A stretch of DNA of 32,000 nucleotides, taken from positions 960,001 to 992,000 of the forward strand of contig NZ_CP011304.1 in NCBI RefSeq assembly GCF_000981785.2, given 5' to 3'. Source of the DNA: Microcystis aeruginosa NIES-2549 (GTDB taxonomy: Bacteria; Cyanobacteriota; Cyanobacteriia; Cyanobacteriales; Microcystaceae). The notes beneath the pieces are model-generated. The model was not told the origin of the DNA and made no database searches. It saw only the letters and a list, made by a program, of their open reading frames with translations. Within the stretch, counting starts at the first letter, position 1, and each line of letters begins with the position of its first letter. A program made the position numbers and the translations under genes. Positions 2,593-31,599 of the stretch are shown in pieces.

Positions 2593-3249
2593 ATGGGTTT
2601 GTTAGATCGCATGGGCCAAGCAATTCGCGCCCAAGTCAATAGTCTGATTCAGGAAAATCAAGATCCAGAAAAACTGCTGGAAAAGGCGATCTTGGAGATG
2701 GAAGGGGAATTGATCCAAATGCGACAAGCCCTGGCGGCAGCCGTCGCTACCCAGAAACGCACCGAGCGCCAACGACAACAACAGGAAAAAGCCGCCCAAA
2801 CTTGGCACGAACGCGCCCAATTAGCCCTACATCACGGTAACGAGGAACTCGCCCGCCAAGCTCTCAGCCAATGGCAAACCTATCAAAGTCAGATCGCCCC
2901 CCTACAAACCTCCCTGCAACAACAGACGGCTATTATACAAAAATTAAAGAAAGAACTCTTGACAATTGAACGCAAATATGCTGAGATGAAAGCACAGAAA
3001 AGCCTTTATGTGGCCAGATTGCGATCGGCGAGCGCCAGTCAAAAAGCCCAAGAAATTATGGGCAGTTTGAACAGCAGTCAGATGGGGACTATTTTCGAGA
3101 AATTAGAAGCAAAAGTCTTAGAAGCCGAATCCCAAGCCGATTTAATCGGGTATAAAGACCCCTTAGAGCGACAATTCCAAGATTTGGAGGGACAAAAACA
3201 AATTGAAGCGGAATTACTCAAGTTAAAACAAGAAAACTTGGATGGGTGA
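2593..3249 (+). CDS. pspA: PspA/IM30-family protein, short form without the Vipp1 C-terminal extension
   Basis: MGLLDRMGQAIRAQVNSLIQENQDPEKLLEKAILEMEGEL... is the canonical PspA N-terminal amphipathic helix plus coiled coil. A GGAGG RBS lies upstream. Confidence 0.85.
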   Translation: MGLLDRMGQAIRAQVNSLIQENQDPEKLLEKAILEMEGELIQMRQALAAAVATQKRTERQRQQQEKAAQTWHERAQLALHHGNEELARQALSQWQTYQSQIAPLQTSLQQQTAIIQKLKKELLTIERKYAEMKAQKSLYVARLRSASASQKAQEIMGSLNSSQMGTIFEKLEAKVLEAESQADLIGYKDPLERQFQDLEGQKQIEAELLKLKQENLDG

Positions 3250-3461: not shown

Positions 3462-4235
3462 ATGGGTTTATTCGATCGCCTTAGCCGAGTTGTCCGAGCT
3501 AACCTCAATGATATGGTGAGCAAGGCTGAAGATCCAGAAAAAATGCTGGAACAAGCTGTCAGTGAGATGCAAGAGGATCTAGTACAGGTACGTCAAGCGG
3601 TTGCTAGAGCGATCGCTGAACAACGACAAACGGAACAAAAATACAGTAAAGACCAGTCAGAAGCCAATAAATGGGAACAAAGGGCCAAATTAGCCCTTTC
3701 TAAAGGGGATGAAAATCTCGCCAGGGAAGCTCTTAAACGCAAGAAAGATTGCACGGAAACCGCCGCCATTCTCAAAAATCAACTGGATCAGCAAACGGTA
3801 CAGGTAGATAGTCTGAGAAAAAACTTGATCGCGCTCGAAAGTAAGATTTCTGAGGCAAAAACCAAGAAAAATATGTTAGTAGCTCGCTCCAGAGCCGCAA
3901 AAGCTAACGAACAAGTCCAAAAAACCCTCGGCAGTATCAATACCAGTAGTTCCGTGGCTGCTTTTGAGCGCATGGAAGAAAAAGTTATGCAGTTAGAAGC
4001 TAGTAGTCAAGCTTACGCTGAAATCACTCAGACGGGCATCGAAAATCAATTCGCCGCACTAGAATCAGGTAGCGATGTGGAGGATGAATTAGCACTGCTA
4101 AAAGCACAAATGTCCGGGGGAGCATTACCCGGTACAGCTTCTAGTCAACCCACTTTACCCCAAGCAACCACCGTCAGGGATTCGGTAGTGGATGCAGAAT
4201 TAGAGGAATTGCGATCGAAGTTAAAAGAACTGTAA
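3462..4235 (+). CDS. vipp1: Vipp1/IM30 (vesicle-inducing protein in plastids 1 homologue)
   Basis: MGLFDRLSRVVRANLNDMVSKAEDPEKMLEQAV... is a PspA-type core. It is followed by the Vipp1-specific C-terminal extension ending VVDAELEELRSKLKEL. Confidence 0.9.
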   Translation: MGLFDRLSRVVRANLNDMVSKAEDPEKMLEQAVSEMQEDLVQVRQAVARAIAEQRQTEQKYSKDQSEANKWEQRAKLALSKGDENLAREALKRKKDCTETAAILKNQLDQQTVQVDSLRKNLIALESKISEAKTKKNMLVARSRAAKANEQVQKTLGSINTSSSVAAFERMEEKVMQLEASSQAYAEITQTGIENQFAALESGSDVEDELALLKAQMSGGALPGTASSQPTLPQATTVRDSVVDAELEELRSKLKEL

Positions 4236-7275: not shown

Positions 7276-8681
7276 ATAATGCCCTTATCACAGGGATCGA
7301 GTTATCCTATCTACTCGCCGCCATTTTATTTATCATCGGTCTTAAACAATTATCTTCCCCCGCTACCGCCCGTCAAGGCAATTTTCTGGCTGCCATCGGG
7401 ATGCTAATCGCCGTTATTGCCACCTTAATCAATCAAGAAATCCTCAGCTATGGTTTAATCGCCGTGGCGTTGGTGATTGGCTCAATTATCGGCCTGGTTT
7501 CGGCGCAAAAAGTCCCGATGACGGCTATGCCCCAAATGGTGGCGATTTTTAACGGTTTAGGCGGTGCTGCCAGTGCTTTAATTGCCATGGGCGAATATTG
7601 GCGTTTACTGCAAAGTGGTGAAAATATTGCCTTTGACTCGATACTGATCGCTATTTTGGGTATATTGATCGGTGGTGTCACTTTTACCGGTAGTGTCCTC
7701 GCTTTTGCCAAATTACAGGAATTAATCAGTGGCGCGCCCGTAACTTTTCCTTTCCAACAACCCTTTAACATTCTCTTGCTACTCACCTTTTTAGGGGGTA
7801 GTGTCTATCTCTTTTTTGATCCCACCTCGATCGATGTTTTCCTGACCTTGGTGGCACTTTCCCTAATTTTCGGGGCTTTATTCGTGCTTCCCATCGGCGG
7901 CGGCGATATGCCCGTGGTTATCTCCCTCTTAAACTCTTTTTCGGGACTTGCCGCCAGCGTGGTCGGTTTTATCCTGATGAATAGTATGCTGATCATCGCC
8001 GGTGCTTTGGTGGGTGCGTCGGGGATTATCCTGACTCAGATCATGTGTAAAGCCATGAATCGATCGCTGGCTAGTGTACTATTTGGGGCATTTGGTACAG
8101 GTGCTAGTGCCGGAGGCGAAGCGAGCGCCACTTCTAGCCTTGATAAATCGGTTCATGCTATTGATTCAGAAGAAGGGGCAATGATGCTCGGTTATGCGCG
8201 TTCTGTGGTGATTGTACCCGGTTACGGCATGGCGGTGGCCCAAGCACAACACGCAGTGCGAGAATTGGCTGAACAGTTGGAAAAAAATGGCGTTGAGGTT
8301 AAATATGCTATTCACCCCGTGGCGGGAAGAATGCCCGGTCACATGAATGTATTACTGGCCGAAGCTAATGTTCCCTATCCGCAACTCTACGATATGGATG
8401 ATATTAATCCTGAGTTTGAGCGCGTCGATGTGGCCTTAATTATTGGGGCGAATGATGTGGTTAACCCCGCTGCCCGTCACGATAAAGCTAGTCCGATTTA
8501 TGGAATGCCAATCCTCGACGTGGATAAGGCACAGCACACGATCGTGATTAAGCGCAGTATGCGATCGGGTTTTGCCGGGGTAGAAAACGAATTATTCTAC
8601 AATCCCAAAACCTTTATGCTCTTTGGTAGCGCTCAAGATGTGGTAGCACAATTAGTATCACAAGTCAAGGATTTGTCATAA
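7272..8681 (+). CDS. pntB: NAD(P) transhydrogenase subunit beta (PntB)
   Basis: 469-aa ORF with an N-terminal polytopic membrane domain. The C-terminal dIII NADP(H) domain reads VPGYGMAVAQAQH..., AIHPVAGRMPGHMNVLLAEA, GANDVVNPAA. Confidence 0.92.
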   Translation: MNNALITGIELSYLLAAILFIIGLKQLSSPATARQGNFLAAIGMLIAVIATLINQEILSYGLIAVALVIGSIIGLVSAQKVPMTAMPQMVAIFNGLGGAASALIAMGEYWRLLQSGENIAFDSILIAILGILIGGVTFTGSVLAFAKLQELISGAPVTFPFQQPFNILLLLTFLGGSVYLFFDPTSIDVFLTLVALSLIFGALFVLPIGGGDMPVVISLLNSFSGLAASVVGFILMNSMLIIAGALVGASGIILTQIMCKAMNRSLASVLFGAFGTGASAGGEASATSSLDKSVHAIDSEEGAMMLGYARSVVIVPGYGMAVAQAQHAVRELAEQLEKNGVEVKYAIHPVAGRMPGHMNVLLAEANVPYPQLYDMDDINPEFERVDVALIIGANDVVNPAARHDKASPIYGMPILDVDKAQHTIVIKRSMRSGFAGVENELFYNPKTFMLFGSAQDVVAQLVSQVKDLS

Positions 8682-22034: not shown

Positions 22035-23039
22035 TTAGGTTTCCGAGGGGAAGTAACCAAACAGTTTTTTATAATCAGAGGCCAGATATCCTCGGTGAAA
22101 AAAACCTAATTCTTCGGCAATTTCATAAACTAATTTTGTCTGATTATTTTGGTTAAGAGATTGATGTAAAGCATTAAGACGAAGCAATTTAAAATAATTG
22201 TAAGGAGACATTTGATAGAAGTCTTTAAATATATATTCTAAGGTGCGTTGACTTACTTCTAAGTCTTGACAAATCGCTGGAATAGTCAGATCAGAACGCA
22301 GATTTTTTCTCATCATTTCTTCTGCTTTTTTGAGGATAGAGGTACGTCTGATAGCGTTTTTAGGGGTTTTAATATCTTTGGTTACTGCTAAAGTAAAAAG
22401 AAAATCTTTGACAATTTCTTCTTTTAATTTTTGACTGACAAAATTCAATCTTAATGCTTTTCTTTTCCCAGATATTTGTTGACGATCTAAATTAAATAGC
22501 ATTTGATAAAGTTGATGACAAGATTGTTGGAGATGACGAATTTTTTCCGATGGGCAAATCACAATAGAAGAAGCAGAAGAATTTAAAAACTTTTTGGCTT
22601 CTGGTAGCTCTAAAGTTTGGCACAATTGTTGCAGATAATTATCATGAACGTAAAGCTGAAAACGATTAGAAAAAGGATGCTGAAAAACGGAAATTTCTGA
22701 TTTAGGGGGTATAATCCCCAGATAGTTATTTTCTAATGGATACAAATTTTGGAAGAAGACAGAATTCACCTGAACAGGAATCGCAAAAACCCACATTTTA
22801 GAATGGACTACTCCCGCAACATTCGTTAAACAATTACGTTGCGATAATTCTAACATCACTTCATCGATGATGATCCTTGAAAGATACCCTTCAAAATTAT
22901 CGCCACTGAGTTGTAAAGCATCTAAGTTGACAAATTCTCGATTCTGAAAATAATGAGAAAAGTCACAAACATATTCACTTTTAAAGGTTAATTCCTGAGA
23001 ATTAATTAAAATATCGGTTTTATTGTCAAAAATAAACAT
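22035..23039 (-). CDS. AraC/XylS-family transcriptional regulator
   Basis: The C-terminal double HTH reads LTIPAICQDLEVSQRTLEYIFKDFYQMSPYNYFKLLRLNALHQSL ... EIAEELGFFHRGYLASDYKKLFGYFPSET. The N-terminal ~230 aa is unassigned. The coding region is AT-rich. Confidence 0.85.
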   Translation of the reverse strand: MFIFDNKTDILINSQELTFKSEYVCDFSHYFQNREFVNLDALQLSGDNFEGYLSRIIIDEVMLELSQRNCLTNVAGVVHSKMWVFAIPVQVNSVFFQNLYPLENNYLGIIPPKSEISVFQHPFSNRFQLYVHDNYLQQLCQTLELPEAKKFLNSSASSIVICPSEKIRHLQQSCHQLYQMLFNLDRQQISGKRKALRLNFVSQKLKEEIVKDFLFTLAVTKDIKTPKNAIRRTSILKKAEEMMRKNLRSDLTIPAICQDLEVSQRTLEYIFKDFYQMSPYNYFKLLRLNALHQSLNQNNQTKLVYEIAEELGFFHRGYLASDYKKLFGYFPSET

Positions 23040-23245: not shown

Positions 23246-23550
23246 ATGACTGAACAATATATGCCCCTTGAAGATTGCTCTGGGTGTGCGGTATTGGGTG
23301 GAGAATTCCGCAATTACGTCACCTGGCATTTTCTAATGACTCAAAATATACCACATTTAGCTATACCTATTATCCAGGGGTATCAGAAATTTACGAGGCT
23401 GTTGCTCCTAATATTAGCACTCGTTTCTATGCCATCGAAGCAACTATTGATTTCTCCAAAGCTAAAGGGTGCTTACAAGGTGTTCTGATGGCGCACGAAG
23501 GATGTTTTGGTGGACATAGTTTCTACATCTATCAGGGAAAACTATGTTAA
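23246..23550 (+). pseudogene. Arylsulfatase C-terminal stump (frameshifted, truncated)
   Basis: Across two frames it reads QYMPLED..., then TTFSYTYYPGVSEIYEAVAPNISTRFYAIEATIDF...GVLMAHEGCFGGHSFYIYQGKL. Compare the arylsulfatase pattern SFTYYPG..IPE..APN..NRS..I.AEV....GVL.A.GGRFGG.SLY..DG.L. The sequence stops where IS630 DNA begins. Confidence 0.55.
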
Positions 23551-23610
23551 GCTGTTCAAAATTTAAATAGCGTACAATAGAAATAGTAACCTAGTCAAAT
23601 ATTAATAGCC

Positions 23611-24400
23611 ATGCCAGCCCCTAATCACTTAAATTCCGAGCAAAAAGAAAAATTACAAAAGGCATTAAAAGAAGAAAAAAATGCCTGCATTCGAGAAAGA
23701 ATTTTGATACTATTGTTGTTAAATGACGGAAAAACTCAAGTCCAAATCTCTCAAATCATTGGGTGTTCACTGCGCACAGTATCCTATTGGTGTGTTCATG
23801 GAGATGCGGATAATTTAGATAGTTTAAAAGACAAGAGAATGGCGGGTAATTATCGAAAAGCAACGGAAGAGTATATCAAAATATTGTTAGAGACAATTGA
23901 CAAAAATCCTCATGAAATGGGGTATGAATTTAGTCGTTGGACAGCCAAAAGATTAGCCACTTATCTAACAGAACAGACAGGAATCAAGTTAAGTAGTTCT
24001 CAAGTCATGAACATTTTAAAAAAAAGTCTATATTTAGGCAAAATCTAGTTTATAAGATCGACAAACCCTTGAAAAAACAAGAGAATTTAAACAGAAACTA
24101 GCGGAATATTTAAAAATAGCAAAAGAAGAATTAAGCTCAATTTCTGGTTCTTCGGTTTGTGTGATGCCATGACGGGAGTTTTAAGGGATGAAATCCTTAC
24201 AGAAAAAGGCATTCGGCGATTTTTGTCAATTGTTTTCGTTCTAGAACGAACTAATCAATTAAGTCTCTTGCCAAATAAGGATTTAGTCGATTTATGCCAC
24301 CCGATCAAACCATACCAAGTAACGAAGAACCCAATTTCTTTTATCGCTTTGACTCATTGTCAGCTGTAGAACATTTAAATTGGTTATTTAGGCAAAGGAA
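23611..24400 (+). mobile_element. IS630-family transposase gene remnant (intact 145-aa HTH ORF, then frameshifted and stop-riddled)
   Basis: ORF 23611-24048 reads RERILILLLLNDGKTQVQISQIIGCSLRTVSYW...FSRWTAKRLATYL. After an A8 run the frame shifts: KKVYI*AKSSL*DRQTLEKTREFKQKLAEYLKIAKEE. Later fragments are FWFF, ..NPI.. and YRFDSLSAVEHL (compare the ISY100 C-terminus YRFDSLSSAIESFF). Confidence 0.7.
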
Positions 24401-24532
24401 CAGGGAACAGGAAAAGGGAGGCTCTCTCTCAACAAATTTGGGAGGCTATTCCCTTAAGTTGACACCAATGATCCTATGCGCCCAAAATGTAATATAGATA
24501 TTTCTACAAAATTGAGATGCACCCATTCAAGA

Positions 24533-25366
24533 TTACCCTTCAATCCAAAGTAACGGAACTAAATCATCGACAAAGCAGCATAAATCCGCAAAATCATGAG
24601 GATATTGATTAGACATTCTCTTAAAATCATGTTCTGGGATTGTTCTCATTTTTACCCCAGCAAGTTTTTGAAAATTTGTTACTGATTTAATCTGTTTATA
24701 ATTATCGGTAGAGGTGATAGAGATTATCACTCCATTACAAGCCATTTCCCAATGATTATTATAGGAACGATTCTGACGAGCTAGGGCTTTTTGTCCGCGA
24801 CTGCCTATTTGAAACTCTTCTGGCCCCCTGATTCTTCCCCAAGGTTTTCTTCTAATCTTAAAACTGGTATTTATATGATTATTTTCTTGAATAAAATTTT
24901 TAATCTTTGCGGCTGTCCCTTTCGGAGAACAATCTGTCCAGTCATATTTCAAATGAATATGTGGTAGCTCTTGAGAAGTTTGTGGTTTAAACCCAATAAT
25001 GATTAATCGTCGAGAAAATTCCCTGAGAAAATTTTGGAAGACTAACTCTGATGGTACAATTTGTGGAGATTTAACTTGTGTTCTATTTAGCAAAGGTTGA
25101 AAATGTTTAATTAGATATAGTTCAATTTCATTTAATTCTTCATTATTGCAAACTTGCCAAGCTATTCTTACAGGATAATCTTGATTAATTTCTTGTAATT
25201 GATATATACGATGGTGATTTTTCCAGCGATTTAAAAGATTGACTGCTTGACCAATATAAAGAATTCTATTTTGAGAATCGATAGCAAAATATATGGCCGA
25301 ACAATCAGGAAGTTGATTTAAATTATCTAGTTCTACTGAAGACATTGCCAAAGGATCGAGCAACAT
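24533..25366 (-). CDS. GIY-YIG nuclease-domain protein with unassigned ~170-aa C-terminal domain
   Basis: AIY-FAIDSQNRIL-YIG gives GIY-x10-YIG spacing. It is followed by the conserved R (LLNRWKNHH), E (NEIELYLIKHF) and N (PLLNRT). The 277-codon ORF is intact in very AT-rich DNA. Confidence 0.8.
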   Translation of the reverse strand: MLLDPLAMSSVELDNLNQLPDCSAIYFAIDSQNRILYIGQAVNLLNRWKNHHRIYQLQEINQDYPVRIAWQVCNNEELNEIELYLIKHFQPLLNRTQVKSPQIVPSELVFQNFLREFSRRLIIIGFKPQTSQELPHIHLKYDWTDCSPKGTAAKIKNFIQENNHINTSFKIRRKPWGRIRGPEEFQIGSRGQKALARQNRSYNNHWEMACNGVIISITSTDNYKQIKSVTNFQKLAGVKMRTIPEHDFKRMSNQYPHDFADLCCFVDDLVPLLWIEG

Positions 25367-25919: not shown

Positions 25920-26087
25920 GAAAGGCTGTAAGTATTTATAAAGTAAAATTTAAAATAAATAATGTCGTGGGTTGGTAGAGCTAAAATACTATATAAGATT
26001 TAAGGGAGTGTGGGCGGAATTCTTCTAATCCCGATACCTGACAGGACTCCACCGAGAAGTAACTATTTTTTAGAGCCAGAAAATATA

Positions 26088-28838
26088 ATGACAGAAATTT
26101 GGGGATCCCTATTTATTTTTTTAGTCTGTCCCATAATCGGGGGATTGCCTCTGATCGATTGGATAAATTATCTAGTAACTGGACGTAAATTATCCCAATT
26201 AGGGACCGGTAATATCGGTGTAACTGCCGCCTTTTATCATGGGGGTAAATTAGCGGGAATTTTGGCGGTAATTTCGGAAGCAGCCAAGGGAATTATCGTT
26301 ATTTTCCTAACCCGTTTCTTTTTTCCTACCGGCTCTCCTTGGGAATTATTAGCTTTAATTGCCTTAGTCGTGGGGCGCTATTGGTTAGGAAAAGGTGCAG
26401 GAACGACTAATGTTTTCTGGGGATTAATCGTTCACGATTTTGTCGCTGTTTTTCTCACCTCAATTATCAGTGGGATTAGCTTTACTATTTTTCGAGAAAA
26501 ATCTACGGGTAGATTGGTAGGATTATTTTTATTAGCTTTAATTCTCACCTTGCGCCGTCCCCACGATTTAGGTTATATTATAACTGCCATTGCTTTAGCC
26601 TGTCTATTAGGGGCAATTTTTCAAAAAATAGCCGACGATTTAGACTTACCCGAAGCAACTGTTAACAATGAATCAAAAACTATGTTTCGTTTTTTTCGTG
26701 GAGATCGATCGATCCAAACTCTTGATGACAATCTAGCGGCTTTAAAAGTGGGACAAAAAGCCGCCACTCTATCCTATCTTAAGCGTACCGGTTATCCCAT
26801 TCCTAGGGGTTGGATTTTACCACCAGGAGATGATCCACAACCCTTAATAGAATCTCTTCATCCTGATATTAATCATCCCTTAGTCGTGCGATCTTCCGCT
26901 ATTGGAGAAGATAGTGAAACCGCTTCATCTGCGGGACAATATACTACAATTCTTAACGTCATCGATCAAGAAAATTTAGCGGCGGCGATTTTAAGTTGTC
27001 AAACCTCCTATAATAGTCCTAATGCCGTTAATTATCGACTCGATCGAGGTCAAGAAAACACGGCCATGGCTGTGTTAATTCAAGAACAAATTCGAGGAGT
27101 TTTTTCGGGGGTTGCCTTCAGTCGCGATCCGATTAATCCTCTCAGTTTAGATGTAGTTATTGAAGCTTTACCCGGAGATGCTACCAGAGTTGTATCGGGG
27201 AGAATCACCCCCGAAAGTTATCGAGTTAATTTAGAAGAAGATATCATCATCGGAGCGGGAGATATTCCCCCGGCTATTATTCAACAGGTAGCTAATCTTT
27301 GTCGGCAATTAGAAGCCCTTGATCATGGCATTCCCCAAGATATAGAATGGACTCATGACGGACAAAAATTATGGTTATTACAGTGCCGTCCTATCACCAA
27401 TTTACAGCCAATTTGGACAAGAAAAATCGCGGCTGAAGTTATCCCAGGGGTAATTCGTCCCTTGCCTTGGTCAATTAATCGCCCCTTAACCTGTGGAGTT
27501 TGGGGAGATATTTTCAGTTTAGTTTTAGGCAAAAAAGCCCTCGATTTGGACTTCAATGAAACAGCCACTTTACACTATCAAAGAGCCTATTTTAATGCTT
27601 CTTTATTAGGAACAATTTTCCGTCGCATGGGATTACCTCCAGAAAGCTTAGAATTCCTGACCAAAGGGTCAAAGTTTACCAAACCACCTTTAACGGCAAC
27701 CTTGGCTAATTCCCCCGGTTTATTAAAACTTTTAGGACGGGAATTACAGTTAGAAAAAGACTTTAGCCAAGATCAAAAAAACTATTTTATACCGACGCTC
27801 GAAAAAATTAACGCTACTTCCCTAGAAACTTTATCTTCTGGGGAGATTTTAGAGCAAATTGAGGAGATTTTAAACGTCTTAAAAAAAGCCACCTATTATA
27901 GTATTCTTGCCCCTCTTAGCTTCGCTTTGCGTCGCAGTATTTCCCGAGTACCTTTTGAGAAATTGGATAACTCCCAAGCACCAGAAATAGCCTCGATGCG
28001 ATCGCTATCTGAACTGAGAAAAAATACGCTCGATCGAGATTTTGACTCGGCTTTTTCCCTCTGGTTAGAAACCTACGGTTATTTAAGCGAAGTGGGGACT
28101 GATATTTCGATACCGAGATGGCGAGAAAATCCCCAAGAGCTGCTACAACTACCCTTAGATAGTCCGGGCAATAATAGCCATAAAAAAGTTAAATCTTCCC
28201 ATACTGTCCAAAAAAGATTAAATATCAAAAACCAAGGGACTGAAATTTACTCCCGTCTTTTAGCTCACCTACGCTGGCATTTTCTCGCTTTAGAAACCCT
28301 CTGGTTACGGCAGCAAATATTATCGGAGACGGGAGATATATTTTATCTAAATTACTCAGAAGTTATCCAGTTAGGTCAGAATAATAAAATCGCCAATCTT
28401 AAGCAAATTATCCGTCAGCGTCGCCAACAATTCCAAGAAAACTCTCAATTAACCGATATTCCCTATATCGTTTATGGACAACCCCCGAAAAAAGAATTTT
28501 TAGTCTCAAATTTAACTGCCAAAAAACGCTTACAGGGAATTGCCGCTAGTGGGGGGACCGTGGAGGGACGAGTCAAAATTATGCCAACCTTACAAAATCT
28601 AGAAATTGCCCCTAATACTATTCTCGTTATTCCCTATACTGACTCAGGATGGTCCCCTTTATTATCCCGGGCTGTGGGCATTATTGCCGAGGTGGGGGGA
28701 CAATTATCCCATGGTGCTATTATTGCCAGAGAATACGGAATTCCGGCGGTTATGGATGTGCATCATGCCATGAAATTGTTAAAAGATGGTCAATTAATTC
28801 GTCTCGATGGCACTCAAGGAATTATTGAAATTCTCTAG
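26088..28838 (+). CDS. Fusion protein: PlsY-like membrane domain, then PPDK_N/PEP-synthase ATP-grasp, central domain and PEP-utilising swivel-His domain
   Basis: I chose the ATG at 26088 (MTEIWGSLFIFL), since the track start is GTG 26 codons upstream. PlsY-like motifs are LGTGNIGVTAAF, EAAKG and GRYWLGKGAGTT. ATP-grasp motifs are VVRSSAIGEDSETASSAGQ and DIEWTHDGQKLWLLQCRPIT. The swivel motif is GGQLSHGAIIAREYGIPAV. Confidence 0.8.
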   Translation: MTEIWGSLFIFLVCPIIGGLPLIDWINYLVTGRKLSQLGTGNIGVTAAFYHGGKLAGILAVISEAAKGIIVIFLTRFFFPTGSPWELLALIALVVGRYWLGKGAGTTNVFWGLIVHDFVAVFLTSIISGISFTIFREKSTGRLVGLFLLALILTLRRPHDLGYIITAIALACLLGAIFQKIADDLDLPEATVNNESKTMFRFFRGDRSIQTLDDNLAALKVGQKAATLSYLKRTGYPIPRGWILPPGDDPQPLIESLHPDINHPLVVRSSAIGEDSETASSAGQYTTILNVIDQENLAAAILSCQTSYNSPNAVNYRLDRGQENTAMAVLIQEQIRGVFSGVAFSRDPINPLSLDVVIEALPGDATRVVSGRITPESYRVNLEEDIIIGAGDIPPAIIQQVANLCRQLEALDHGIPQDIEWTHDGQKLWLLQCRPITNLQPIWTRKIAAEVIPGVIRPLPWSINRPLTCGVWGDIFSLVLGKKALDLDFNETATLHYQRAYFNASLLGTIFRRMGLPPESLEFLTKGSKFTKPPLTATLANSPGLLKLLGRELQLEKDFSQDQKNYFIPTLEKINATSLETLSSGEILEQIEEILNVLKKATYYSILAPLSFALRRSISRVPFEKLDNSQAPEIASMRSLSELRKNTLDRDFDSAFSLWLETYGYLSEVGTDISIPRWRENPQELLQLPLDSPGNNSHKKVKSSHTVQKRLNIKNQGTEIYSRLLAHLRWHFLALETLWLRQQILSETGDIFYLNYSEVIQLGQNNKIANLKQIIRQRRQQFQENSQLTDIPYIVYGQPPKKEFLVSNLTAKKRLQGIAASGGTVEGRVKIMPTLQNLEIAPNTILVIPYTDSGWSPLLSRAVGIIAEVGGQLSHGAIIAREYGIPAVMDVHHAMKLLKDGQLIRLDGTQGIIEIL

Positions 28839-29442: not shown

Positions 29443-31599
29443 TTATCTGCTATTTTCCAATAAAAACCTTCTTTCTGCCCGAACAATTGCCTCTCTAGTG
29501 GCTAAAACTGCCTCCCTATCCACCGAAAGAGAAGTCACACCCCAAGCAATCAGATCATCGATAAGTTCGGGATACTGGACGATAGCCATGCCGCAAACCG
29601 AACAGGGAATCTGTAAAAGTTTTGCCTGAGTGATAATTTGTTTTAAGGCCGCTCTGACTGCGGGATGACGAGCGTTAAAATATTCTGAGAAATCTTCTCG
29701 ATCGCTACCTAAAAGTAATTGAGTTAAATCATTAGTGCCAATAGCGATCAATTGTACGCCCGCTTGCACATAATCCCTCAATTGAAAGATTACCCCCGGT
29801 ACTTCCACCATTATCCCCAATTGGAAAGAAGGGACTTGAGTGAGTAAAGCCGACTGTACCCGTTGCCGGCAGAAAATAAATTCCTCAACCCCGCGGACAA
29901 AGGGAAGCAGTAAATTAATATTGGTGGTGCCGGTGGTTTGTACCCGTCGTAAAGCTTGCAATTCTAGATCGAATAGAGTCGGATCTAATATATAACCATG
30001 GGTTCCCCGACTGTCTTTAGCCGAATCTTGAGCATCAAAAGAACGGTAAAATAAAGGCTTAGGCTGGATACTAAGGGCAAATTGTGCGATTAAATCACTT
30101 AATCTCTCGATCAATGCTTCTTGATGCTCTGGCGTTAACCATTCTTCTAGATTACGCTGAGAAAGTAACTCTAGAATCATCCATTCTGAGCGCAATAAAC
30201 CGATCCCATCAATAGGCAGTTCTTGGATTCTGGCAATACTTTCAGTTTGACTGAGATTAACCATCAAACGGGTAGCGATTGCCGTCCCGTCGGTTTCTCT
30301 GGGGGGTGGAGGGGGCAAGGAAATCTGTTCCTGAGATGCTAGAGAAATAATTCCCCTCGTACCATCTACTAAAATTATCTCGCCTGAGCGGATAATTTCC
30401 GTGGCATTTTTCACCCCGACAATGGCAGGAATGGCTAATTCCCGGGCTAAAATGGCTCCATGGCTAGTTAATCCCCCCTGTTCCGTGATCATTGCTCGAA
30501 TTTGGCGTAAATGGGGCAGTTTTTTCGGAGGTAAATTAGTAGTAACCAGAATGCAATCCTGAAAATTTGCCTCTGGGGAGTCGAAATTGCTGATCACTTT
30601 TGCCACTCCCGATGCCAACCCTGGGGATGCCCCTAATCCTCTTAAGGGATAATTGGAGGTAGTGGGGGTGATTTCCTGACTGTGACAGTTGAGAATATAA
30701 ATTTGACCATCCAGCATCATCAGCCATTCTATGCTGGTTAACGTCGGTTTTTCCGCCAGTAGAGATTGAATCAGTTGACAAAGGCGATCGAGGGCGAAAT
30801 TATCTAAACAGTAGCTTTCCTGTAAACTGGGTGCTAATAATTGTGGTACGAGCAGATTACTGTCACTATTGAGATAATAAGCCCTGGATTTATTGCCTAA
30901 TTGCCGACTGCGTAATTGACCAGAGCGATCGATAATGTAGGTATCCGGTGCCACTTCTCCATTAACTAAACTGTGTCCTAAACCCCAAACCGCCTGAATT
31001 TCCCAGTTATCCTCATTAATCAACACATTTCCCGCACAATTGGCTGGTAATAACGGTTGTACCAGTAAAGATAATTGAATGTTTTCTAAACCAATTCCCA
31101 TTTTTCGCCAATAAAATAGACTTCTGGCGGTGAATAACTCCGCCCAAGCTTGTTTTAGAGCATTTTCTAGATTATCTGCTTTAATTCCACTGATGGGGGC
31201 GGAAAATAAACCGAGAGTTCGCCGAGCCAGATTAGCTGGTAGGGAAAAGCGCCATACTAGGGTAGCCATGGATAATTGTGCCACGGCCGCCTCTAGTTCT
31301 TCTAACCAGAGAGGAGGAATTTCCGCTTGTAAAATGGCCCGCCGACTCTCTCGCGCAACTAATTGCAGAGCTTTGGCGTTATCTACGTCTAAATAGAGGG
31401 AAGATTGCGGAAAATCAGTCAGAAACGAGTCAGCATTGTCGATAGTTTCCAAAAATTCCGCAAAAATGCGGTTAAAAATGGCAAATCCCCTGATAATTGG
31501 GTATCCTCGTTGGTGCAATTCACTGGCAATAAAAGCTTTTTCCCCCACCAGGGGGCGATCAGAAGCACTAATGCGATCGAGCCAGCAGAGAATGGTCAC
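29443..31599 (-). CDS. PEP-utilising enzyme, three-domain (ATP-grasp-like N domain, swivel His, PEP/pyruvate TIM barrel), PpsA/PPDK-like
   Basis: The swivel motif is GGLTSHGAILARELAIPAIVG. TIM-barrel motifs are GIGLLRSEW, IMVEVP, IGTNDLTQLLLGSDRE and SVCGM. The N domain aligns to PPDK_N, but the RSSA..ED..SFAGQ motif is degenerate. Confidence 0.85.
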   Translation of the reverse strand: MTILCWLDRISASDRPLVGEKAFIASELHQRGYPIIRGFAIFNRIFAEFLETIDNADSFLTDFPQSSLYLDVDNAKALQLVARESRRAILQAEIPPLWLEELEAAVAQLSMATLVWRFSLPANLARRTLGLFSAPISGIKADNLENALKQAWAELFTARSLFYWRKMGIGLENIQLSLLVQPLLPANCAGNVLINEDNWEIQAVWGLGHSLVNGEVAPDTYIIDRSGQLRSRQLGNKSRAYYLNSDSNLLVPQLLAPSLQESYCLDNFALDRLCQLIQSLLAEKPTLTSIEWLMMLDGQIYILNCHSQEITPTTSNYPLRGLGASPGLASGVAKVISNFDSPEANFQDCILVTTNLPPKKLPHLRQIRAMITEQGGLTSHGAILARELAIPAIVGVKNATEIIRSGEIILVDGTRGIISLASQEQISLPPPPPRETDGTAIATRLMVNLSQTESIARIQELPIDGIGLLRSEWMILELLSQRNLEEWLTPEHQEALIERLSDLIAQFALSIQPKPLFYRSFDAQDSAKDSRGTHGYILDPTLFDLELQALRRVQTTGTTNINLLLPFVRGVEEFIFCRQRVQSALLTQVPSFQLGIMVEVPGVIFQLRDYVQAGVQLIAIGTNDLTQLLLGSDREDFSEYFNARHPAVRAALKQIITQAKLLQIPCSVCGMAIVQYPELIDDLIAWGVTSLSVDREAVLATREAIVRAERRFLLENSR

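Follow-up and report, generated by a model that had tools for sequence, protein, structure and literature searches.

A PlsY-like membrane domain joined to an Rph-type dikinase in Microcystis aeruginosa and other cyanobacteria: a candidate membrane dikinase acting on lipids

Why should a cyanobacterium carry, in a single polypeptide, a membrane domain related to PlsY, the acyltransferase for glycerol-3-phosphate (G3P), and a dikinase of the rifampicin-phosphotransferase (Rph) type, and what might such a protein do? The question is raised by an open reading frame (ORF) at 26088-28838, plus strand, in a stretch of 32,000 nucleotides from Microcystis aeruginosa NIES-2549 (contig NZ_CP011304.1, positions 960,001 to 992,000), which is referred to here as the window. 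An interpretation made from the letters alone (the sequence-only reading) had suggested that the kinase part generates a phosphorylated intermediate which the PlsY-like domain then consumes. Our analysis describes the protein, from its sequence, as a probable Rph-type dikinase with a PlsY-derived membrane module. The function that we favor, with a probability of roughly 0.5, is that of a membrane-integral Rph-type "water dikinase" whose lipid acceptor would be presented by the PlsY-derived seven-transmembrane (7-TM) domain.

The reading frame of 916 codons is uninterrupted within the window, as had been proposed. An alternative in-frame GTG start at 26010 would give a protein of 942 amino acids (aa); in the family alignment the conserved amino terminus (M-x-E/Q-I/V-W-G) begins at the ATG at 26088. 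Three Pfam domains exceeded their curated cut-offs, namely PF02660 G3P_acyltransf (aa 14-173, score 61 bits, cut-off 24.1, E value 2e-16), PF01326 PPDK_N (E value 1.6e-39) and PF00391 PEP-utilizers (aa 841-911, E value 3.8e-22), while PF02896, the PEP-utilizers_C TIM barrel, gave no Pfam match in the protein. Together with sequence and fold matches these results bear out the expected architecture, which consists of a PlsY fold, an ATP-grasp domain, an Rph-type central region and a carboxyl-terminal swivel domain with its histidine, and has no TIM barrel. The motifs that had been picked out by eye were all found where they had been placed, and so was the codon of the phospho-histidine. The features of the gene are as follows, all on the plus strand.

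26088..28838, plus strand: whole gene, PlsY-like / Rph-type dikinase fusion of 916 aa and a stop codon, a single ORF with three Pfam domains above cut-offs
26088..26657, plus strand: PlsY-like 7-TM membrane domain, aa 1-190 (PF02660, HHalign, AlphaFold2 model, fold match)
26202..26240, plus strand: variant of motif 1, G39-T-G-N-I-G-V-T-A-A-F-Y50-H51, canonical PlsY having G-S35-G-N-x-G-A-T41-N-x-x-R45
26277..26291, plus strand: E64-A-A-K67-G68 motif, canonical PlsY having D59-x-x-K62-G
26373..26423, plus strand: G96-R97-Y-W-L-G-K102-G-A-G-T-T-N-V-F-W-G112, counterpart of PlsY His92 and the Loop3 "phosphate hole", 4-7 residues shorter
26634..26648, plus strand: acidic D183-D184-L-D-L motif, at the site of the canonical basic motif 3, H177-x-x-N180-I-x-R-L (cross-class alignment)
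26649..26732, plus strand: linker, aa 188-215, with a conserved F-R-F-F-R-G-D (family alignment)
26733..27413, plus strand: ATP-grasp nucleotide-binding domain, aa 216-442, with K224, R268, T287 and E420 (PF01326, alignment to the Listeria enzyme RPH-Lm)
27414..28502, plus strand: central region, aa 443-805, positional equivalent of the rifampin-binding (acceptor) domain of RPH (Foldseek to RPH-Lm)
28503..28835, plus strand: phospho-histidine swivel domain, aa 806-916 (PF00391; aligns to RPH-Lm residues 692-866)
28710..28712, plus strand: His875 codon, for the histidine of GGQLSHGAIIAREYGIPAV that is predicted to carry the phosphate and aligns with RPH-Lm His825

Scans for a promoter and a terminator around the gene gave nothing better than shuffled sequences.

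By profile comparison and by its predicted structure, the amino-terminal domain is a true homologue of PlsY with the PlsY fold. An AlphaFold2 (AF2) model of this domain alone (predicted local distance difference test, pLDDT, 89.4; predicted template modeling score, pTM, 0.85) had the aaPlsY structures 5XJ5-5XJ8 as its sole significant Protein Data Bank (PDB) matches in Foldseek, with template modeling scores of 0.70-0.74 and root-mean-square deviations of 2.9-3.4 A over 179-185 columns of about 199 residues; the next match had an E value >1. HHalign related the domain to canonical PlsY with a probability of 99.5% and an E value of 7.6e-23. A pairwise sequence search of the PDB with the domain returned nothing even at an E value of 10, and PlsY was reached from it by profile and fold methods only. 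Among the 25 listed of 33 NCBIfam matches the sole PlsY-related model was NF010992, "membrane protein", whose score of 23 bits lies far below its cut-off of 222. The PlsY-related membrane domain read from the letters is thus upheld, but the 5-6 helices assigned to it are not, the prediction being a full 7-TM PlsY fold.

To relate the domain to the PlsY active site, residues were mapped by a profile-to-PDB alignment, a cross-class MAFFT alignment and HHalign, and residue frequencies were taken from 143 non-redundant amino-terminal domains of the family, ranging from Gloeobacter to the Nostocales. According to the PlsY structure paper (Li et al., PMC5700162), to which all statements below on aaPlsY refer, G3P is bound through a phosphate clamp formed by Ser35, Arg45, Lys104 and Asn180 and also by Ser142 and His177, whereas Thr41, His92 and the Loop3 backbone (residues 104-107) bind acyl-phosphate; the active site faces the cytoplasm, at mid-depth of the inner leaflet. 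In the fusion family, Asn37 corresponds to Asn42 (143/143), Thr41 to Ser/Thr46 (135/143), Asn42 to Ala47 (139/143) and Asp59-x-x-Lys62 to Glu64-x-x-Lys/Arg67, with both E64 and K/R67 present in 143/143. His92 is replaced by Arg97 in every sequence (143/143), the basic character being retained and the histidine not. In the Loop3 region K/R102 is found in 137/143 and G105, T107 and W111 are each found in 143/143; the loop is shortened by 4-7 residues and retains G-K/R102-G-A-G-T-T. HHalign pairs GK102GAGT with the canonical GK104GVAT after a 7-residue deletion, and MAFFT places K102 at K101 with K104 deleted. A shortened segment that had been called the third motif, GRYWLGKGAGTT, is indeed present, but it is not the third motif; its PlsY counterpart is the segment of His92 and Loop3, known in the literature as motif 2 (PMC5700162). 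We take these residues (Ser/Thr46, Arg97 and the GKGAGTT loop) to suggest that the acyl-phosphate half of the PlsY site is recognizably retained.

The other half of the site presents a different picture. Ser35 is replaced by Thr40 in 141/143 and Arg45 by Tyr50 in 124/143, and in none of the 143 is there a Lys or Arg at this last position. The Pfam and HHalign matches both end before PlsY motif 3, so that His177 and Asn180 have no counterpart in the fusion; contrary to the sequence-only reading, the true motif 3 is absent and DDLDL stands in its place, in a juxtamembrane segment K-I-P-D183-D184-L-D-L in which both D183 and D184 are present in 143/143. The G3P half of the site therefore appears to be largely dismantled and in part charge-reversed. 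In aaPlsY, R45K loses >90% of activity, S35T retains 17% and His177 tolerates no substitution (PMC5700162), and because of these losses canonical G3P acylation by the PlsY-like domain is unlikely. The domain is probably not a G3P acyltransferase.

These residues bear directly on the form in which a function was first proposed, that of an enzyme with two activities, the kinase converting free fatty acid to acyl-phosphate and the PlsY-like domain using this to acylate G3P to lysophosphatidate, bypassing PlsX and acyl-ACP. The PlsY fold, the Pfam-level family membership and the retained residues on the acyl-phosphate side are what such an enzyme would have, PlsY catalysis is described as substrate-assisted with no need for a protein base, so that a diverged scaffold could still work, and there is a precedent in PlsY-DegV fusions (for both, PMC5700162). 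The consumption of acyl-phosphate to give lysophosphatidate is nevertheless disfavored by the G3P pocket, most of whose residues are changed across the 143 members. Moreover, cyanobacteria already possess canonical PlsX and PlsY, Slr1510 and Sll1973, which are essential (PMC10114076), and a distant fusion of this kind also occurs on an archaeal contig (see below). We consider this explanation very unlikely, a low weight that follows from the residue evidence. For M. aeruginosa TAIHU98 a PlsY is predicted (a CyanoBase prediction cited in PMC6131169), and there is no canonical plsY within the window. Since the canonical enzymes are essential in cyanobacteria, the PlsY-like domain is best regarded as a diverged paralogue and not as the housekeeping enzyme.

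The same pattern of retained and lost residues would also fit an acyltransferase that depends on acyl-phosphate or lipid and uses a new acceptor in place of G3P; this might be a lyso-lipid, a protein, or a head group that is neutral or cationic. The site has retained its acyl-phosphate side while the pocket for an anionic acceptor is charge-reversed to an invariant DD, the substrate-assisted chemistry of PlsY (PMC5700162) would suit a changed site, and a second substrate could arrive through the central domain of the kinase. This proposal comes with no candidate acceptor and no conserved partner genes, and it is in effect a variation on the membrane dikinase with one extra, unsupported step, for which reasons we hold it to be quite unlikely.

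The kinase half is closest to the Listeria rifampin phosphotransferase RPH-Lm, whose structures 5FBS and 5HV1 are the nearest solved proteins by sequence (E value about 6e-50). A full-length AF2 model (pLDDT 73.9, pTM 0.48) aligned in Foldseek with RPH-Lm over about 900 columns (E value 2e-26), its amino-terminal part matching PlsY. Superposition thus recovers both of the anticipated relationships, the amino-terminal domain with PlsY and the remainder with the Listeria enzyme. The key residues of RPH-Lm are Lys22, Arg117, Thr136 and Glu297 in the ATP-grasp domain and His825 as phosphate carrier (Stogios et al., PMC4844700). In the alignment R117, T136, E297 and H825 correspond to R268, T287, E420 and H875, and the equivalent of Lys22 is K224, which lies within a G-x-K-A-A motif. 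K224, R268, E420 and H875 are invariant in 28 diverse family members, and position 287 is Thr or Ser. The catalytic residues of the kinase are therefore intact, and from their conservation the kinase half is predicted to be catalytically competent. The central region is very strongly conserved in the 28-sequence alignment and at the sequence level aligns to RPH only in patches. Relatives match PF27448 Rph_4th in this region, while the protein of the window gave no such Pfam match at an E value <=1.

None of the existing names describes the family well. Databases call its members "glycerol-3-phosphate acyltransferase", "PEP synthase", "pyruvate phosphate dikinase" or "rifampicin phosphotransferase", and none of these names was borne out when residues, domains and model scores were compared. 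The nearest NCBIfam models for the soluble part are the "PRK06241 PEP synthase" subfamilies, rifamycin phosphotransferase and PigC/RedH, all with scores far below their cut-offs: the RPH equivalog NF041857 scored 238 bits against 999, the PigC equivalog 207 against 1300, RedH 192 against 1350 and the PEP-synthase model NF005057 157 bits against 598. A literature search found no characterized protein of the fusion family and no publication on it, in agreement with the expectation that no protein with such a fusion had been characterized. The structure paper had searched for PlsY fusions and makes no mention of one with a dikinase (PMC5700162).

Does the membrane domain matter to the kinase, or does it merely hold it in place? 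The protein could be a small-molecule dikinase like Rph or PigC, with the acceptor in the central domain and the PlsY-like part doing no more than anchor it or passively conduct a hydrophobic substrate. The strong conservation of the central region, the PF27448 matches of relatives and the Foldseek alignment of nearly all of the soluble part to RPH-Lm all speak for this, and RPH, PigC/HapC and HpeHI hold hydrophobic acceptors in their central domains (PMC4844700, PMC12167813). On the other hand, about 25 polar or glycine positions of the membrane domain are invariant or nearly so in the 143 sequences, including the P-loop-like GKGAGTT and the DDLDL, and a mere anchor would not be expected to keep them across the phylum. 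Nor would an anchor need a complete PlsY fold or a separately translated partner gene maintained in three lineages, and the domain also has standalone relatives. We regard this alternative as rather unlikely; because those positions are kept from Gloeobacter to the Nostocales, the membrane domain appears to be more than an anchor.

The distribution of the family bears on whether the two halves belong together. Microcystis proteins are 95-99% identical to the protein of the window, and other cyanobacteria have proteins 54-72% identical over 100% of the length. The three-domain protein is present in >100 protein clusters from many cyanobacteria, closed genomes included, for example those of Gloeothece PCC 7424, Pleurocapsa PCC 7327, Rippkaea PCC 8801 and Crinalium PCC 9333. 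A scan of one genome per species found the fusion in at least 590 genomes, closed chromosomes among them. The best 80 of these all match residues 1-916 and cover the Chroococcales, Pleurocapsales, Oscillatoriales, Nostocales, Leptolyngbyales and Chroococcidiopsidales. In a further search it was also found in Gloeobacter violaceus (Glr2690) and Anthocerotibacter panamensis, which branch off deepest among cyanobacteria, and for this reason the fusion is considered ancient within the phylum.

The fusion clearly extends beyond one assembly, which disposes of a trivial explanation, namely that a plsY and a neighboring PEP-synthase-like gene were joined by a sequencing or annotation error. Split versions do occur in a few genomes and could be taken to favor such an error. 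The fused frame is intact in the window and throughout the clusters and species genomes just mentioned, including closed chromosomes from independent projects, and the amino-terminal domain is a distinct, co-evolving subfamily and no canonical plsY. An artefact is excluded for all practical purposes.

When a profile of the amino-terminal domain was run against 1.84 billion representative proteins, only 339 matches were obtained, and the subfamily is therefore narrow. The matches comprise the cyanobacterial fusions, a second cyanobacterial clade with both fused (P0174, P0184) and split forms, distant "type B" fusions (P0206, P0230, P0240, P0202) and standalone proteins of about 200 aa that are related to the type B domains. 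The amino-terminal domains of type B are nearer to canonical PlsY and likewise lack Arg45 and motif 3. One type B fusion was found in a metagenome-assembled genome (MAG) of the Thermotogota, and another, P0230 (1025 aa), lies on L092, an archaeal 130-kb contig (JGI metagenome 3300041075) that carries the archaeal markers eIF-1A, RIO1, a KRR1-type KH protein, Topo VI A/B and a family-B DNA polymerase (PolB). A PlsY-fold protein in an archaeon is an odd occurrence; downstream of P0230 on this contig is an acetyl-CoA-synthetase-like gene.

In three independent lineages the protein is encoded by two genes, a PlsY-like gene of 197-223 aa followed directly by an Rph-like kinase gene of 750-767 aa. 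The junctions of L090, L088 and L094 show that the split versions divide in the linker (aa 188-215).

L088/L089: split pair in a 7.6-Mb genome and also in a second assembly, genes overlapping by 14 nt
L090: split pair in a Gloeobacterales MAG, genes overlapping at ATGA
L094: split pair in a marine cyanobacterial MAG, genes separated by a 9-nt gap

The gap in L094 shows that this split is not a frameshift. Repeated fusion and fission of one pair of genes is a classic sign of shared function, and the occurrence of adjacent split genes in three lineages argues that the two halves work together. The coupling of the PlsY-like domain with the kinase, which had been surmised from one sequence, is thus supported by the pairing kept from Gloeobacter to the Nostocales as well as by the adjacent or overlapping split genes. 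Two members of the collection stand apart. P0172 (910 aa) is a degenerate paralogue of the fusion that lacks GTGN, has VRLSS in place of VRSSA and carries GGLFSQGA as its swivel motif, with Gln where the His should be; it may have arisen within the family as a pseudo-enzyme devoid of catalysis. A 55%-identical fusion of cyanobacterial type lies on a 6.9-kb contig (L056) of a MAG labeled Tatlockia sp., in a Legionellales bin, and this contig is most likely mis-binned and no genuine non-cyanobacterial occurrence.

If the membrane domain takes part in the reaction, the following cycle can be proposed for the membrane dikinase. The cytoplasmic ATP-grasp domain would bind ATP through K224, R268, T287 and E420. 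By homology with RPH, PPDK and PEP synthase, the swivel His875 would then attack the beta-phosphate, with release of AMP and inorganic phosphate (Pi) and formation of a phosphohistidine (His~P). The swivel domain would next move to the cytoplasmic face of the PlsY-like domain; the kinase is attached at the carboxyl-terminal end of the PlsY fold, which we infer from the topology of the 7-TM model to be cytoplasmic. There it would phosphorylate a single-chain lipid at its head group, the lipid occupying the groove in which PlsY binds acyl-phosphate, and the new phosphate would sit in the retained glycine-rich "phosphate hole" (R97, K102-G-A-G-T-T). The invariant acidic residues E64, D117, D183 and D184 may provide a Mg2+ site or a dock for the swivel domain.

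The leading candidate for the acceptor, because the acyl-phosphate site is kept and the G3P site is lost, is a free fatty acid, so that fatty acid, ATP and H2O would give acyl-phosphate, AMP and Pi. The product would then be used by canonical PlsY or PlsX. Making such a mixed anhydride is energetically reasonable for a class of enzymes that makes phosphoenolpyruvate (PEP). A possible precedent, by analogy, is offered by fusions of a DegV (FakB-like) protein to the carboxyl terminus of PlsY (PMC5700162). An alternative acceptor would be a lipid alcohol, such as an isoprenoid or fatty alcohol or a lyso-lipid. The fatty-acid version of the membrane dikinase is plausible but far from assured, with odds well short of even. 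It is tempting to extend it, and we offer only tentatively the idea of an ancient, hitherto unrecognized cyanobacterial route of lipid activation, established before the Gloeobacter split, in which a membrane Rph-type dikinase turns free fatty acids released from membranes into acyl-phosphate inside a re-purposed PlsY fold and feeds PlsY and PlsX independently of acyl-ACP synthetase.

Several observations weigh against a membrane dikinase that acts on a lipid. The chemistry and the substrate are inferred from the architecture, folds, conservation and gene fusion and fission that were observed. The central region, which is as highly conserved as the membrane domain, could hold the true acceptor, in which case the membrane domain would be secondary. 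The RPH acceptor residues (R666/E667, Q336/Q337) could not be mapped on the fusion, the R666/E667 segment falling in an unaligned gap, and the alignment of Loop3 is ambiguous between HHalign and MAFFT. The geometry between domains in the full-length model is unreliable, as its pTM indicates, and gives no placement of His875 at the PlsY-like pocket. The genomic neighborhoods of the gene are mostly unconserved. To our knowledge the characterized Rph-type enzymes phosphorylate hydroxyl or enol oxygens, and none is known to act on a carboxylate. Finally, Aas is reported to be the only enzyme by which cyanobacteria activate fatty acids, and mutants in aas lose fatty acids by leakage (PMC10114076). 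These data would oppose a redundant route at least in Synechocystis 6803 and S. elongatus 7942, the model strains in which the aas phenotypes are known.

Should the membrane dikinase prove correct, no Rph-type dikinase before it would have been shown to work within the membrane on a lipid, and it would give the first instance of a PlsY fold turned into a pocket for an acceptor or product and not serving as a G3P acyltransferase. Since the fusion has been kept from Gloeobacter to the bloom-forming Microcystis and the Nostocales, it would represent a 900-1000-aa enzyme of core membrane biology with no assigned function. If the fatty-acid version is true, the adenylating enzymes Aas/FadD and FakAB would be joined by a third type of enzyme for activating fatty acids, not homologous to either, and the view of Aas as the sole cyanobacterial activator would change. 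This would matter for fatty-acid and biofuel engineering, where yields are limited because free fatty acids are taken up again and re-activated.

Neighboring genes offered little help with the choice of substrate. Seven contexts were taken from closed or long contigs and all ORFs were clustered in 80 loci, and no universal neighbor was found, so the conserved neighborhood that had been thought worth looking for does not exist in general. In the Nostocales (loci L031-L083) a gene for a Cupin_2 protein of 116 aa adjoins the fusion gene at its 3' end, or overlaps it there, in 18 loci (e.g. L069 8889-9239), and a membrane-anchored GDSL_2 hydrolase with an amino-terminal transmembrane helix lies divergently 0.4-1.1 kb upstream (e.g. 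L059 4260-5294). The GDSL_2 hydrolase was found near the fusion in 19 loci, counting the distant Lusitaniella locus L006 (35% identity). Cupin and GDSL hydrolase were considered as conserved operon partners and rejected, since apart from a few other cases this arrangement in essence reflects synteny within the Nostocales. In the Thermotogota MAG the gene directly upstream of the fusion encodes an alpha/beta-hydrolase. On L094 a PAP2 lipid-phosphate phosphatase (7458-8177, plus strand) is encoded 0.5 kb downstream of the split pair on the same strand; it was dismissed as a conserved partner, being found in 1/94 loci. DUF3891 adjoins the fusion in Gloeothece PCC 7424 (L001 13053-13793) and Crinalium PCC 9333 (L003 8841-9569), the two copies being 54% identical, and was likewise set aside because it is adjacent in these two contexts only and is absent from the other loci and from the window. 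The GDSL_2, alpha/beta-hydrolase and PAP2 neighbors are weak, non-universal hints of lipid turnover.

Within the window, a 718-aa PEP-synthase-like protein with PPDK_N, PEP-utilizers and PEP-utilizers_C domains is encoded convergently with the fusion gene (29443-31599, minus strand). It is shorter than a typical PpsA. Its adjacency is confined to Microcystis loci and for this reason is probably coincidental lineage synteny. On the other side of the fusion gene, the region 23246-25366 contains a 145-aa ORF that resembles a transposase (HTH_32/HTH_23, 23611-24048), short ORFs overlapping it and a 277-aa GIY-YIG-domain ORF (24533-25366, minus strand). It looks like mobile-element debris between the fusion gene and an AraC-type regulator (22035-23039, minus strand). 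Farther away are tandem PspA/IM30-family paralogues of 218 and 257 aa (2593-3249 and 3462-4235, plus strand), presumably a Vipp1/PspA pair.

How does the protein compare with known systems? With canonical PlsY its amino-terminal domain shares the 7-TM fold, PF02660, Asn37, a Thr41-like Ser/Thr, the D/E-x-x-K-G motif, a glycine-rich Loop3 carrying a basic residue and a pocket facing the cytoplasm. It differs in the substitutions Ser35 to Thr, Asn42 to Ala, Arg45 to Tyr and His92 to Arg, in the shorter Loop3, in the replacement of motif 3 by DDLDL, and, unlike PlsY, in being fused to or paired with a dikinase. RPH-Lm (5FBS, 5HV1) has the same order of ATP-grasp domain, large central region and carboxyl-terminal swivel His with no TIM barrel, and the catalytic residues are common to both. 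The chemistry expected for the fusion is that of RPH-Lm, in which ATP, acceptor and H2O give AMP, Pi and phospho-acceptor. The fusion is distinguished by the extra amino-terminal PlsY-like membrane domain of 190 aa and by being a conserved, housekeeping-like cyanobacterial gene, whereas RPH is a resistance gene.

The prodiginine ligases PigC/RedH/HapC and enzymes of the HpeHI or phenylphosphate-synthase type share the Rph-type ATP-grasp domain and swivel His with the fusion and act on hydrophobic small-molecule acceptors, which RPH, PigC/HapC and HpeHI bind in the central domain (PMC4844700, PMC12167813); they lack a PlsY-like domain. The two-component dikinases of the HpeHI type show that this family tolerates splitting into separate polypeptides, although there the ATP-grasp domain is separated from the rest, while in the fusion family the membrane domain is separated from the whole kinase. 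PEP synthase and PPDK have homologous ATP-grasp and swivel-His domains, but the fusion has no PEP/pyruvate TIM barrel and its His domain is carboxyl-terminal and not central.

FakA/FakB, which convert a bound fatty acid to acyl-phosphate beside a PlsY-type membrane protein, would provide a functional and hypothetical analogy only, as Dak2 (FakA) and DegV domains gave no Pfam match in the fusion and the sequences are not homologous. In FakA the gamma-phosphate of ATP is transferred directly; a dikinase would instead pass on the beta-phosphate by way of His~P. In two Chloroflexi, a fatty-acid-binding DegV/FakB-like protein is fused at the carboxyl terminus of PlsY (PMC5700162), the same position that the kinase occupies in the fusion described here.

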